Assembly: GCA_964533295.1 (NCBI GenBank) | Contig: CAZHLM010000001.1 | Span: 1,958-65,957 of the forward strand | Reading direction: 5' to 3' | Source of the DNA: an uncultured Verrucomicrobiota bacterium | GTDB taxonomy: Bacteria; Verrucomicrobiota; Verrucomicrobiia; Palsa-1439 | DNA: 64,000 bases | Shown: positions 42,486 through 53,971 of the stretch, in pieces | Position numbering within the stretch: position 1 is the stretch's first letter | How the letters are laid out: each line of letters opens with the position of its first letter | Position numbers and translations under genes: made by a program | The notes under the pieces: model-generated | What the model saw: only the letters and a program-made list of their open reading frames with translations | What the model was told of the DNA's origin: nothing | Databases searched by the model: none

Positions 42486-44051
42486 ATGGCTACCCAACTT
42501 CCTCTTGTCCCCAACTCCCAGGCGAATGGCCGGCTCGACATCAAGCAGCTTGAGTCCTGGCTGTGGGACGCCGCCTGCTCCATCCGCGGCGCCCTGGACG
42601 CGCCCAAGTTCAAGGACTACATCCTGCCCCTGATCTTCGTCAAGCGCCTCTCGGACGTCTTTGACGACGAGATCGCGCGCCTAATGGAGGAGTTCGGCAG
42701 CGAGAAGACGGCGCGCTCGCTTGTGAAGAAGGACCACTCCCTGGTCCGCTTCTACATTCCCCCCGCCGGCACCTGGGCCGCCATCCGCCAGTCCGCCACC
42801 GGCGTGGGCCAGCGGGTCACCGACGCCCTGCGCGCCATCACCCGCGAGAACCCGTCGCTCCAGGGTGTGATCGACATCGTGGACTTCAACGCCACGGTCA
42901 GCGGCCAGCGCATCCTGGACGACGGCAAGCTGTGGTCCCTGATCGAGATTATCAGCCGGCACCGGCTGGGCCTGAACGACGCCGAGCCCGACATCCTGGG
43001 CCGGGCCTACGAGTACCTGCTGCGCAAGTTCGCGGAGGGCCAGGGCCAGAGCGCGGGTGAGTTCTACACCCCGGAGGGCGCCGGCTGGCTGGTGGCGCGT
43101 CTTCTCAACCCTAAGCCAGGCCAAGTCGTGGACGACCCAACATGTGGGTCGGCGGGCCTCCTGGTGAAGGCTCAATTGGTGGCGCGCGAACACGATGGGC
43201 ACGACGCCCAGCCGCTCCGGCTGTACGGCCAGGAGCTGAACCACGTCACCTACGCCATCGCCAAGATGAACATGATCATCCACGACATGGAGGGGGAGAT
43301 CGTCATCGGCGATACGCTGCGCAGCCCGAAGCTGCTGGAGGGCAGCCGGCTCAAGCGCTTCGACCTGGTGGCCGCCAATCCGATGTGGAACCAGGACGGC
43401 TATGGCACGGCCTTCTACGAGAACGATCCCTTCGAGCGCTTCACGCACGTGCCGCCGGCCAGCTCCGCCGACTGGGGCTGGGTCCAGCACATGGCGGCCT
43501 CGCTCAATGACGCCGGCCGGGCCGCCATTATCCTGGACACCGGCGCGGTCTCGCGCGGTAGCGGCGGCCAGAGTGGCAACAAGGAGAAGGACGCGCGCCG
43601 GGCCCTGGCCCAGCGCGATTGGATCGAAGGCGTGGTGCTGCTGCCCGAGAACCTGTTCTACAACACGACCGCGCCGGGCATCATCCTGGTGCTCAACAAG
43701 GCCAAACCGGCCAGACGGCGCGGCCAGATCATGCTCATCAACGCGTCGCGGGAGTTCGAGAAGGGCCGGCCTAAAAATTTCATTCCGGAGGCCGGCATCC
43801 GCAAGATCGCGGACGCCTACCATGCCTGGAAGCCGGCCGAGAAGTTCGCACGTATCATCACTTTGGCCGAGGCCGAGCAGAACGACTGGAACCTGAGCCC
43901 GTCGCGCTACGTGGACACGGGTGAGGCCGAGCAGCACCGCGACGTGCAGGGCATCATCGACGATCTGGCGACTCTGGAAGTCGAGGCTGCCGCGCTGGAT
44001 ACCGAACTGAACGGGATTTTGAAGGGACTGGGTTATCAGCCCTATGCCTAG
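42486..44051 (+). CDS. hsdM: Type I restriction-modification system methyltransferase subunit
   Basis: HsdM N-domain (WDAACSIRG...KDYILPLIFVKRLSDVFDDE). Motif I region PTCGSAGLL. Motif IV ANPMWN (NPPF/W-type). Confidence 0.85.
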   Translation: MATQLPLVPNSQANGRLDIKQLESWLWDAACSIRGALDAPKFKDYILPLIFVKRLSDVFDDEIARLMEEFGSEKTARSLVKKDHSLVRFYIPPAGTWAAIRQSATGVGQRVTDALRAITRENPSLQGVIDIVDFNATVSGQRILDDGKLWSLIEIISRHRLGLNDAEPDILGRAYEYLLRKFAEGQGQSAGEFYTPEGAGWLVARLLNPKPGQVVDDPTCGSAGLLVKAQLVAREHDGHDAQPLRLYGQELNHVTYAIAKMNMIIHDMEGEIVIGDTLRSPKLLEGSRLKRFDLVAANPMWNQDGYGTAFYENDPFERFTHVPPASSADWGWVQHMAASLNDAGRAAIILDTGAVSRGSGGQSGNKEKDARRALAQRDWIEGVVLLPENLFYNTTAPGIILVLNKAKPARRRGQIMLINASREFEKGRPKNFIPEAGIRKIADAYHAWKPAEKFARIITLAEAEQNDWNLSPSRYVDTGEAEQHRDVQGIIDDLATLEVEAAALDTELNGILKGLGYQPYA

Positions 44052-51046: not shown

Positions 51047-53971
51047 ATGTCCGAGCGCCGCGAAGTTCAGGACCCGCTCATCCGCTACGCCGTCGAGGTC
51101 GGCTGGACCTACCTCTCCGCCGACGATGCTCTGATCCTGCGCGGCGGGGAGATGGACCTGTTCTTCGCCGAGGTACTGGCTGGACAGCTCCGTAAGCTGA
51201 GCCCTGACATCGCCTTTGATGTCCAGGCCGTCCTGCGCCAGCTTGAGAACGCCCGGCCAGGCATCGAGGGCAACTACGAAATTCTGCTCCACCTGCGCGG
51301 CGAGAAATCGGTCTACGACCCTGGCCAGAAGCGCGAGCTCAACCTCAGGCTGGTGGACTTCGACGAGGCCGAGAACAATGTCTACCACGTCACCGACGAG
51401 TGGACCTACACCAACGGCCGGCACACCAACCGCGCCGACGTGATGTTCCTGATCAACGGTATCCCCGTGGTGATGGTGGAGACCAAGGGCGCCGGCCACG
51501 CGGACGGCATCGAGCGCGGCCTGACCCAGGTGCGCCGCTACCACCGCGAGACCCCGGAGCTGGTCACGCCGCCCCAGGTCTGGAACGTCACCCACTTCCA
51601 CGACTTCTACTACGGCGTCACCTGGGCCCTGGACCGCAAGCAGGTGTTCAACTGGAAGGAAGAAGCGCCCGGAGACTTCGAGCGCAAGGTCCGGGCCTTC
51701 TTCGACCGGCCGCGCCTGCTGCGTGTCCTGCGCGACTACATCCTCTTCACGCGCAAGGACGACGAGCTGCATAAGTTCATCCTGCGCCAGCACCAGACCC
51801 GGGCCGCGGAGAAGGTCGTCGCCCGCGCCCAGGACCCGGCCCGGCGCTCCGGCCTGGTCTGGCACACGCAGGGTTCCGGTAAGACCTTCACCATGATCGT
51901 GGCCGCCGAGCAATTGCTGGAACGGCCGCACCCGGCGCTCGGCAAGAACACGGTGCTCATGATCGTCGACCGCAATGAGCTGGAGACCCAGCTCTTCGGC
52001 CACCTGAGCGCTTACGGCTTCAAGGCGGTCGAGATCGCCACCAGCAAGGCCCGCCTGCGCGAGCTGCTGGTCACGGACTACCGCGGCCTGATCGTCTCGA
52101 TGATCCACAAGTTCGACGACATCCCGGCCAACCTGAACTCCCGCGCCAACATCTACGTGCTGGTGGACGAGGCCCACCGCACCACTGGCGGCGACCTGGG
52201 CAACTACCTGATGGGCGCGCTGCCCAACGCGACCTACCTGGGCTTCACGGGCACCCCCATAGACAAGACCGCCCACGGCGAAGGCACGTTCAAGACCTTC
52301 GGCCGGGACGACCCGCAGGGCTATCTGGACAAGTACGCCATCGGCGAGTCCATCGCGGACGGCACGACGGTCCCCCTGCACTACAGCCTGGCTCCCAATG
52401 ACATCCGCGTGCCGCGTGAGACCCTGGAGCGCGAGTTCCTGACGCTGGCCGAGGCCGCCGGCGTCAGCGACATCGACGAGCTGAACAAGATCCTAGACAA
52501 GGCCGTCACGCTCAAGGCCCTCTTGAAGTCCACCGACCGTGTAGACAAAGTAGCGCGCTTTGTGGCTGAGCACTACCGGGCCAACGTCGAGCCGCTGGGC
52601 TATAAGGCCTTCCTGGTCGGCGTAGACCGCGAGGCCTGCGCGCTGTATAAGCAGGCGCTGGATCAGTATCTGCCGCCCGAGTACTCGGTCGTGGTCTACA
52701 CCGCCGCCCACAACGACGCTGAGCTGCTCCAACGCTACTATGTCCGCCGCCAGTACCCGCCAAGCGCGGCCGAGGGCCCCCAGGCGATCACCAACGAGGA
52801 GGCCGAGAAGAAGCTGCGCAAGGCCTTTATCAAGCCAGAGACGGTGCCCAAGATCCTGATTGTCACCGACAAGCTCCTGACCGGCTTCGACGCCCCGGTC
52901 CTGTACTGCCTGTACCTCGACAAACCGATGCGCGACCACACGCTCCTACAGGCCATCGCGCGCGTCAACCGGCCGTACGAAACCGACGCCGGCGAGAAGA
53001 AGCCGTCTGGCTTCGTGTTGGACTTCGTCGGCATCTTCGAGAAACTCGAGCGGGCGCTGGCCTTCGACTCGGACGAGGTCGAGGCTGTCATCACCAATCT
53101 GGACCTGCTCAAGACCACGTTCGCGTCCCTGATGCTGACGCAGGCGCCGGCCTACCTGCCCTTCGCCAACCCCTATGGCGACGACCGAGACCTCTCGGCT
53201 GCCATCGCCCACTTCACGGACAAGGAGCGCCGGCAGGCTTTCTTTGCCTTCTTCAAGCAGCTGCAGTCGCTGTACGAGATCATCTCGCCCGACGCATTCC
53301 TGCGCGAATATGTGCCGGCCTACGCTCGCCTGGCGGACCTGTTCGCTAAGGTCCGCATCGCCTTTGCGCCCCGCGTCCTGGCCGACCCCGACCTGCGCGC
53401 CAAGACGGCGGCCCTGGTCCAGGAACACGTCACTTCGGCCGGCATCCAGGCGCCGTCGCCTACCTACAAGATTAACGCCCAGACCCTGCAAGCGCTCAAA
53501 GAGAGCCAGGACCCGGACCCGGCCAAGGTCTTCAACCTGGTCAAGGGTCTGGTGGCGGCCGTGGACGAGAACGCTGAGACCCAGCCGTACCTGATCCCCA
53601 TCGGCGATAGGGCTGAAGCCTTGCACGCTGCCTATGACGACCGGCAGGTCACGACCCAGGATGCCCTGGCCGAGGCGGCGCGGCTGGTGGAGGAGTACAA
53701 CCGTATCCAGGCCGAGCGCTCTGCGCTCAACCTGGACGAAGCCACTTTCGGCGTCTACGTGACGCTCCAGCGGCACGGGGTGGGAGACGCACGCGAGCCG
53801 GCGGTGGAGATCAAGGCGTTGTTCGACGCCTACCCCCACTGGCGAGCTAACGCGGGCGCGCAGCGCGCTTTGCGAGCCAAAACTTACAAGGCCGTGATGG
53901 CGCTGGTGAACGGCGATGAGGATGCCGCGCAGGGCCTGGTGGACGACCTGATTCGGCCGGCACGGCGATGA
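51047..53971 (+). CDS. hsdR: Type I restriction enzyme R subunit (intact)
   Basis: N-terminal nuclease-like domain (FLINGIPVVMVETKG: D...E.K). Helicase motif I GLVWHTQGSGKT. DEAH-like YVLVDEAHR. Motif III FTGTP. Confidence 0.85.
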   Translation: MSERREVQDPLIRYAVEVGWTYLSADDALILRGGEMDLFFAEVLAGQLRKLSPDIAFDVQAVLRQLENARPGIEGNYEILLHLRGEKSVYDPGQKRELNLRLVDFDEAENNVYHVTDEWTYTNGRHTNRADVMFLINGIPVVMVETKGAGHADGIERGLTQVRRYHRETPELVTPPQVWNVTHFHDFYYGVTWALDRKQVFNWKEEAPGDFERKVRAFFDRPRLLRVLRDYILFTRKDDELHKFILRQHQTRAAEKVVARAQDPARRSGLVWHTQGSGKTFTMIVAAEQLLERPHPALGKNTVLMIVDRNELETQLFGHLSAYGFKAVEIATSKARLRELLVTDYRGLIVSMIHKFDDIPANLNSRANIYVLVDEAHRTTGGDLGNYLMGALPNATYLGFTGTPIDKTAHGEGTFKTFGRDDPQGYLDKYAIGESIADGTTVPLHYSLAPNDIRVPRETLEREFLTLAEAAGVSDIDELNKILDKAVTLKALLKSTDRVDKVARFVAEHYRANVEPLGYKAFLVGVDREACALYKQALDQYLPPEYSVVVYTAAHNDAELLQRYYVRRQYPPSAAEGPQAITNEEAEKKLRKAFIKPETVPKILIVTDKLLTGFDAPVLYCLYLDKPMRDHTLLQAIARVNRPYETDAGEKKPSGFVLDFVGIFEKLERALAFDSDEVEAVITNLDLLKTTFASLMLTQAPAYLPFANPYGDDRDLSAAIAHFTDKERRQAFFAFFKQLQSLYEIISPDAFLREYVPAYARLADLFAKVRIAFAPRVLADPDLRAKTAALVQEHVTSAGIQAPSPTYKINAQTLQALKESQDPDPAKVFNLVKGLVAAVDENAETQPYLIPIGDRAEALHAAYDDRQVTTQDALAEAARLVEEYNRIQAERSALNLDEATFGVYVTLQRHGVGDAREPAVEIKALFDAYPHWRANAGAQRALRAKTYKAVMALVNGDEDAAQGLVDDLIRPARR

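Follow-up and report, generated by a model that had tools for sequence, protein, structure and literature searches.

Putative recombination scars behind embedded Argonaute genes in a type I restriction-modification operon of an uncultured Verrucomicrobiota bacterium

How did a 64-aa open reading frame (ORF) that resembles the beginning of hsdR come to lie directly behind a prokaryotic Argonaute (pAgo) gene, upstream of the intact hsdR of the same operon? The question is raised by a type I restriction-modification (R-M) locus on contig CAZHLM010000001.1 of an uncultured Verrucomicrobiota bacterium, of which a stretch of 64,000 nucleotides (the window) was analysed. The subunit genes hsdM (42486-44051), hsdS (44044-45363) and hsdR (51047-53971) are all intact ORFs on one strand according to Pfam, NCBIfam and PADLOC matches, and by gene content they constitute a predicted type I R-M system. 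The order hsdS-pAgo-(scars)-AbiEi-AbiEii-hsdR, all on the + strand and with short gaps, is that of cassettes embedded in an R-M operon. An initial annotation had interpreted the ORF as the remnant of a single event, in which a lower-GC donor block comprising the 3' part of hsdS, the pAgo gene and the 5' part of hsdR entered through homology in hsdM/hsdS and in hsdR, and had concluded that Argonaute and type I enzyme are functionally coupled. The results described below make it probable that this operon (hsdM-hsdS-...-hsdR-YgjP) acquired the defence cassettes embedded in it through recombination with hsd operons related to it and that the ORF is a scar of this process. Database loci and contigs that were compared with the window are designated by L-numbers (L013, L090, L172, etc.).

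The annotated ORF is present in the window at 48735-48929, and its first 34 codons align start to start with the N-terminus of hsdR, with identity at 19 of 34 amino acids (pairwise BLASTP E = 3e-9), a number that was reached in fixed register by none of 100,000 shuffles. At the nucleotide level, 68 of 98 positions match without gaps between hsdR nt 1-98 and 48735-48832, the matches at codon positions 1, 2 and 3 being 24/33, 25/33 and 19/32, and an unguided repeat search of 36000-55000 returned the same pair as its top direct repeat (48735-48835 and 51047-51147; 101 nt, 70%). The pAgo stop codon (TAG, 48729-48731) is followed by a 3-nt spacer and then by the ATG of the ORF at 48735. The alignment proposed as a check was thus significant, and a diverged copy of roughly the first 35 HsdR residues indeed begins directly behind the pAgo stop. 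The lower GC that the ORF was said to share with hsdS and the pAgo gene was found in part, as the 98-nt segment has a GC content of 0.58, compared to 0.67 in the corresponding stretch of hsdR and 0.53 in the pAgo gene. Some conserved HsdR residues have been lost from this segment, e.g. GW has become SC.

The claim that the whole ORF is a copy of hsdR holds for 48735-~48832, the only hsdR-derived portion (codons 1-33/34), but not for 48836-48929. Alignments of protein and DNA with hsdS 3' ends identified the latter as what remains of the 3' end of an older hsdS gene, comprising the C-terminal conserved region with the motif LE.LFR.ML.QLMTGR and a stop codon. The reading frame of this tail is intact in a sister locus, L090, where it reads GLEGLFRVMLGQLMTGRVKVIGLSNTSTWR up to the stop; the window has the same sequence minus 1 nt, and real HsdS C-termini end in RLEELFRAMLGQLMTGRIRARE before the stop. 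Local alignment of the tail to the hsdS 3' end of L172 gave a score of 63, which was reached by 0 of 2000 shuffles, and the tail was also recovered as direct repeat D15 in the repeat search. Because only 48735-~48832 comes from hsdR, while 48836-48929 comes from a frameshifted hsdS 3' end, the 64-aa ORF is best described as a predicted chimeric scar, not a gene, and it carries no predicted function.

Comparison with L090, a 10.9-kb contig that was reached via the database clusters of the window hsdM and AbiEii, delimits the block to which the scar belongs. By blastn, window 36841-38826 is 94% identical to L090 1-1984, running into the hsdM start; hsdM is 90.5% identical at the nucleotide level, the hsdS central conserved region (44572-44760) 95.8%, the hsdS C-terminal conserved region (45223-45341) only 75.6%, and 48833-52111, containing AbiEi and AbiEii and extending into hsdR, 91.3%. 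No other segment of the window and L090 was aligned by blastn, and both the Argonaute gene of the window and a KAP NTPase gene upstream of hsdM are absent from L090. By sliding identity, the differing block begins where the hsdS central region ends (~44750-44760) and extends to ~48833, inside the 64-aa ORF, where the old hsdS tail that precedes AbiEi sets in. The backbone common to both strains consists of hsdM, the hsdS central region, the old hsdS 3' tail, AbiEi-AbiEii and hsdR. Exchanged in the window are the second target recognition domain (TRD2) and C-terminal conserved region (CR2) of hsdS, the Argonaute gene and hsdR nt 1-98, so that the hsdR 5' scar (48735-48832) is particular to the pAgo cassette, with L090 homology beginning only at 48833. 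The lower-GC block described in the initial annotation therefore does differ, in the same place, from an otherwise 90-96% identical locus, and its left boundary lies in hsdS as had been suggested, at the central conserved region.

The corresponding slot of L090, between hsdS and AbiEi, is occupied by an unrelated Argonaute system. It consists of an HNH-APAZ gene (4821-6137), the product of which has an HNH effector match over residues 9-113 and matches to APAZ-type PNTD1-PNTD2 models over 108-436, and a short pAgo gene (6124-7548; PADLOC pAgo_I, E = 1e-141). With an HNH-APAZ gene beside a short MID-PIWI pAgo, the pair is classified here as a putative SPARHA-type system. The L090 block also contains a different TRD2-CR2 and its own, differently derived hsdR 5' piece (7549-7628, with a 9-nt gap), which lies just before the shared tail and the ATG of which overlaps the short-pAgo stop. 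Because this piece and the scar in the window are only ~50% identical, each Argonaute cassette appears to have brought, or recombined within, its own hsdR start. Four contigs of the window strain (L081-L083, L178) show the identical arrangement. When a second sister locus was sought in a metagenome scan with AbiEii, 80 loci were recovered, of which only L092 shares the backbone, and it does not reach the slot.

Composition agrees with these breakpoints. Outside a low-GC stretch from ~36 kb to ~49 kb, which is interrupted by the host-like hsdM, the window has a GC content of ~65-70%; no tRNA or integrase boundary was found for this island, the only two tRNAs in the window lying far from the locus, at 736-1460. 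GC at third codon positions (GC3) is 0.89 in hsdM, 0.64 in hsdS, 0.57 in the pAgo gene, 0.77 in AbiEi, 0.85 in AbiEii and 0.89 in hsdR. The initial annotation had named two observations that would speak against it, a lack of alignment of the remnant to hsdR N-termini and a uniform GC3; neither was made, since the scar aligns to the hsdR N-terminus and GC3 is far from uniform, ranging from 0.50 in the KAP gene to 0.89 in hsdM/hsdR. Within hsdS, the GC3 of TRD1 is ~0.55, that of the central region 0.95 and that of TRD2 and the C-terminal region 0.5-0.78, and the same gene is, in order, unalignable to L090, 95.8% identical, unalignable and 75.6% identical. Hence both TRD1 (44044-~44570) and TRD2 with the C-terminal conserved region (~44761-45363), the latter contiguous with pAgo, are foreign. 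Identity to L090 furthermore drops from 98% to ~68% over the last ~100 nt of hsdM (43950-44050), which, together with the unalignable TRD1 and its low GC3, indicates a putative exchange of TRD1 on its own, the crossover lying in the 3' end of hsdM.

A comparable scar exists upstream of hsdM. In a tblastn search, the hsdM N-terminus matched 38765-38893 (46.5% over 43 aa, E = 3.8e-6), a 5' remnant of ~43 codons that has kept the native hsdM upstream region and lies before the KAP-family P-loop NTPase gene (38950-42414; Pfam KAP_NTPase, E = 2.7e-18; GC3 0.50). The region upstream of the intact hsdM is different and low in GC, with identity to L090 exceeding 90% only from ~42519. Because it is absent from the sister locus, the KAP gene is a predicted inserted cassette, and hsdM' a second putative scar of the same kind as hsdR'. 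The foreign origin of both the hsdS TRD1 and this upstream gene points to several events rather than the single one that had been claimed.

These observations can be combined into a history of the locus. Because the hsdS tail, the AT-rich spacer behind it and AbiE are common to both strains, the ancestral operon would have been hsdM-hsdS-AbiEi-AbiEii-hsdR. The donor would have been a second operon of this hsd family with the Argonaute gene placed directly between its hsdS and hsdR, and the block would have entered on the left by a homologous crossover in hsdS (or hsdM). On the right, the initial annotation had placed a crossover in the resident hsdR, but AbiEi-AbiEii lie between, so that the join is not a homologous crossover there, and the scar is fused to the older hsdS 3' tail common to both strains. 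The block would instead have been sealed by an illegitimate or microhomology join of the donor hsdR, at ~nt 100, to the resident hsdS tail, where only a short imperfect match is present (GGCGGGGAGATGGA in comparison with GGCAGGAGTGGA); alternatively, the right end could have been sealed by a crossover inside a pre-existing scar. Because the 98 nt belong to the pAgo block and not to the shared backbone, the Argonaute gene appears to have once been located immediately upstream of an hsdR start, and pAgo-hsdR adjacency in the ancestry of the cassette is thus supported. This much of the proposed hsdS-pAgo-hsdR donor stands; the donor itself may have possessed only a scar, as conserved residues have been lost.

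Several points weigh against this history. The donor search that had been called for found no donor lineage by either pAgo or hsdS TRD2-CR2, the best non-self matches being 60% and 62% identical, respectively. A single sister locus spans the slot, which is too little to fix how many independent joins there were and in which order events occurred. The junction of hsdR' and hsdS tail is exactly the same in both strains although the hsdR' parts differ, which requires either a hotspot of microhomology or a crossover only a few bases away. Given its lost residues (GW to SC), the hsdR piece could already have been a scar when it moved, instead of being cut from an intact hsdR. Finally, the related loci are all metagenome contigs; assembly chimeras are nevertheless unlikely, as independent samples show the arrangement again (L081-L083, L178), although L090 is less firmly covered by this argument.

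Stubs of hsd genes recur beside related cassettes. L172, whose short pAgo is 76% identical to that of L090, contains an hsd operon of the window's family (YgjP and an hsdR of 974 aa) with the order hsdM-hsdS-[SMODS-SLATT]-hsdR'-[HNH-APAZ-short pAgo]-hsdR'-[DUF4258-DUF2283]-hsdR-YgjP (1504-11087). Three cassettes are stacked in it, and hsdR 5' scars follow the first two (4282-4383 and 7151-7249). A test for the hsdS tail was not significant at either scar of L172, so that a single common origin of all scars is not supported. L174 encodes the closest short pAgo (78% identical), in a SPARHA pair located outside of any hsd operon; behind the short pAgo is a decayed hsdR' of 116 codons with a stop and a frameshift (5362-5704) and, because no hsd operon is present, this cassette seems to have carried the scar along. 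A related SPARHA pair was also observed inside a DUF1156 methylase/DUF499/DEAD-helicase cluster resembling Hma (L179, 1-13675). Cassettes in this hsd family thus appear, from their sequences, to carry or leave stubs of adjoining hsd genes. With L174 (116 codons) as the exception, the four hsdR stubs (window 48735-48832; L090 7549-7628; L172 4282-4383 and 7151-7249) end at nt ~98-108, within codons 33-36, despite having three different downstream partners. Microhomology, selection and a real recombination site are candidate causes of the shared endpoint.

The Argonaute gene of the window (45369-48731, + strand) encodes a 1120-aa protein that is, by sequence, a full-length SLFN-pAgo, i.e. a member of a family of long-B Argonautes of 1071-1187 aa that combine a Schlafen nuclease at the N-terminus with a GHKL ATPase and an inactive PIWI domain, for which RzAgo of Runella zeae is the model (Kuzmenko et al., bioRxiv 2026, 10.64898/2026.05.29.728809). 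Residues 4-1120 match 2-1121 of the 1121 positions of the PADLOC pAgo model PDLC02394 (E = 3.6e-303), and RzAgo (L013, 10001-13339) aligns end to end with residues 1-1120 at 34% identity by BLASTP. By architecture, the protein joins a Schlafen/AlbA_2 nuclease and a GHKL ATPase to an Argonaute core of long-B type whose PIWI is inactive, and its length falls within the published range. In the Schlafen domain, the Pfam SLFN_AlbA_2 match over residues 51-161 scores 20.9 bits, under the cut-off of 25.3, but close homologues do carry PF04326; E29 aligns with RzAgo D32 and D84 with D72, and the SAFAN-type motif reads SFAITN, with F69 and A70 invariant in the family. The ATPase domain (PF13749, HATPase_c_4) scores 30.7 bits, above its cut-off of 26, and the invariant residues E324 and N328 align with RzAgo E314 and the N-box. 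The PIWI region matches those of solved pAgos, MID-PIWI membership being assigned by profile and BLASTP rather than by a tree. In place of the first catalytic Asp (the GID motif of Aquifex Ago) the protein has GLS, with S888 invariant in the family; loss of the DEDX tetrad was scored on this first position only. Assignment to the published family follows from the end-to-end model match, the RzAgo alignment, the conservation of the residues that Kuzmenko et al. (2026) mutated in RzAgo (D32, D72 and E314) and the Ser at the catalytic Asp. The family is rare: 14 relatives of the window protein were found among 5.8 billion proteins, the best non-self match being 60% identical, and a genome scan with an alignment of the protein recovered family members at 33-42% identity among the matches listed.

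RzAgo uses RNA guides to sense DNA, which leads to tRNA cleavage and abortive infection; it defends a heterologous host on its own, and no conserved linkage was reported by the authors (Kuzmenko et al., 2026). By homology, the window SLFN-pAgo should act autonomously. It would sense invader DNA with RNA guides and then switch on its Schlafen tRNA nuclease, resulting in abortive infection, while the GHKL ATPase would drive oligomerisation. Its GTG start lies 5 nt past the hsdS stop and is preceded by a Shine-Dalgarno sequence (AGGGAG), so that SLFN-pAgo is probably co-transcribed with hsdMS.

Other explanations of the ORF and of its position were weighed against the proposed history. An intact frame with an ATG, annotated as a gene in several assemblies of the window strain, might be taken as a true small-protein gene, e.g. 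for a regulator or an anti-restriction-like peptide derived from the HsdR N-terminus, but a frame that runs from hsdR codons 1-34 into an hsdS tail carrying a frameshift makes this very hard to credit, all the more so because the equivalent stretch of L090 contains no ORF (the start is absent and stops are present), the protein cluster of the ORF holds window-strain sequence only and no Pfam match to it was obtained. Less far-fetched, but still improbable, is a duplication in situ, in which the 5' end of the resident hsdR was copied locally, e.g. upon insertion of AbiEi-AbiEii, and then decayed, with pAgo arriving separately by chance. The sister strain, too, has an hsdR-like piece upstream of the shared hsdS tail, and some scar may therefore pre-date pAgo. 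A local copy would, however, hardly have fallen to 69% identity with the resident hsdR when the two strains have kept 90-96% identity in orthologous backbone DNA, nor does it account for the ~50% identity of the two strains' pieces. That third codon positions have diverged most (19/32 matches, compared to 24-25/33 at the others) fits divergence as coding hsdR elsewhere, and an ATG 3 nt past the pAgo stop is operon-type spacing.

Whether the physical linkage reflects a conserved functional unit was addressed by surveying 25 SLFN-pAgo loci flanked on each side by 3 kb or more. An hsd gene lies within 300 bp on the same strand in 8 of the 25, representing at least 5 phyla, compared to 1 of 13 in a small AbiE control set; one further locus has an hsd gene within 5 kb and 16 have none within that distance. 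Schlafen-ATPase-only relatives of the pAgo N-terminus are embedded in the proteobacterial loci L053, L062 and L073 (~10001-11100) with the order hsdS-X-hsdR-YgjP, one is fused to HsdS (L028, 9998-12835), and the Poribacteria cases are either stand-alone or fused (L028, L031, L034), in line with module exchange of such relatives in Poribacteria as also reported by Kuzmenko et al. (2026). These findings, along with the occupation of one slot in sister strains by two different Argonaute systems, would favour an obligate coupling, in which one conserved unit comprises SLFN-pAgo together with the type I enzyme and linkage is selected, e.g. because restriction products feed the Argonaute or because of co-regulation. 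Such a coupling, as proposed in the initial annotation, is nonetheless unlikely: no hsd genes or hsdR scars were found near the three closest relatives with context (L084, L086 and L088; 57-60% identity), the order relative to the hsd genes varies (hsdS downstream, hsdR upstream or hsdS upstream), four of the eight adjoining loci come from Poribacteria and could go back to a single event, RzAgo alone protects a heterologous host, and type I operons commonly harbour unrelated defence genes (Payne et al., bioRxiv 10.1101/2024.01.29.577857; TgvAB, PMC11411939). Slightly less doubtful, though the odds are still clearly against it, is a proposal in which hsd operons with an hsdR of ~974 aa and YgjP serve as an integron-like platform, with cassettes, two unrelated classes of Argonaute system among them, moving from operon to operon along with a portable ~100-nt hsdR 5' handle and conserved hsdS segments, reuse of a breakpoint at codons 33-36 and selection of the Argonaute-type I pairing for cooperation. 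The linkage is thus not conserved in the clade of the window protein and, across the family, recurs without being universal; the evidence supports historical physical linkage and recurrent association, not an obligate functional unit. In Thermoanaerobaculia, an SLFN-pAgo 36% identical to that of the window lies ~3.3-3.7 kb from a convergent hsdM-hsdS-hsdR-YgjP operon (L027, 10001-23146), the hsdM and hsdR of which are 57-59% identical to those of the window, i.e. the same hsd family in another arrangement.

The remaining features of the locus are as follows, all on the + strand. HsdM is a methyltransferase subunit (Pfam N6_Mtase, E = 2.6e-89, and HsdM_N) encoded by a gene of host-like composition, HsdS a mosaic specificity subunit (Pfam Methylase_S) and HsdR the restriction subunit (NCBIfam TIGR00348, E = 4e-132; Pfam HSDR_N, SWI2_SNF2 and T1R_D3-like). 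Between the hsdS tail and AbiEi, an AT-rich spacer (48930-49014) that is >90% conserved in L090 contains promoter-like hexamers (TAGAAA and TATGAT, 18 nt apart, and also GATATAAT) and is probably the AbiE promoter. AbiEi (49015-49848; PADLOC E = 3.1e-83; Pfam AbiEi_4 and AbiEi_1) is an antitoxin and transcriptional regulator, and AbiEii (49845-51038; PADLOC E = 1e-123; Pfam AbiEii E = 7e-39) a nucleotidyltransferase toxin that is listed in databases in a form of 397 aa; the pair conforms to AbiE toxin-antitoxin/abortive infection systems by PADLOC and Pfam, with a C-terminal WYL domain on AbiEii as an extra. Relatives of the AbiE pair are embedded now and then in type I operons (L106, L115, L118, L123). 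The YgjP-like metallopeptidase gene (53968-54363; Pfam YgjP-like, E = 1.7e-27) overlaps the hsdR stop, and such a gene was found next to hsdR in every operon of this hsd family examined (L027, L053, L062, L073, L091, L167, L172).

The locus provides a nucleotide-level record of embedded defence cassettes entering and exchanging inside a multi-gene immune operon. The homology comes from the hsd genes, and each event is marked by gene ends that stayed behind (hsdR', hsdS', hsdM'). Two unrelated Argonaute systems are in effect alleles of a single slot whose surroundings are almost identical, which offers a natural experiment on whether Argonautes gain from a type I operon setting. An annotation trap is also corrected, in that the 64-aa ORF is a predicted scar instead of a gene. 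Knowledge of how SLFN-pAgo or type I enzymes work is unchanged by the locus.

Shuffling of hsdS domains by recombination in conserved regions is classical for type IC systems. The window resembles such cases in that both TRDs differ between the sister strains around a central region that is 96-100% identical and of host-like composition, but its tract does not stop with hsdS and extends over an entire defence gene and an hsdR start. Homology-facilitated illegitimate recombination, in which one homologous anchor is combined with a microhomology join, is known from the natural-transformation literature. The homologous boundary in the hsdS central region and the non-homologous join of hsdR ~nt 100 to the hsdS tail are in keeping with it, the mechanism being deduced from sequence only.

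Defence genes embedded in type I R-M operons have been described under the term 'guilt by embedding' (Payne et al.) and include TgvAB on VPI-2 of Vibrio cholerae (PMC11411939). As in these cases and that of PrrC, hsdS and hsdR enclose unrelated cassettes, in the window pAgo and AbiE, which have the same orientation and probably share a transcript. Neither the paper by Payne et al., the text of which does not contain the words 'pAgo', 'AbiE' or 'recombination', nor that on TgvAB describes Argonaute cassettes in type I operons or recombination scars of hsd gene ends. SPARHA, a short pAgo with HNH-APAZ (PMC12738770), is the counterpart of the L090 slot and not of the window, with strong HMM matches to both genes; the words 'restriction-modification' and 'defense island' do not occur in that paper, whereas the L090 pair lies in a type I operon with an hsdR scar behind it. 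The window SLFN-pAgo, a protein known from its sequence alone, resembles RzAgo in architecture, length, nuclease and ATPase residues, loss of the first PIWI Asp and setting among defence genes. It differs in its embedding in a type I operon, where hsdS precedes it and an hsdR scar follows, while the only operon shown with type I genes by Kuzmenko et al. (2026) is from Poribacteria. Neither the Argonaute, as a member of a published family, nor its embedding, which follows a known pattern, is thus new in kind; new here are the alternation of two different Argonaute systems at one slot and the scar evidence for how such cassettes are exchanged.

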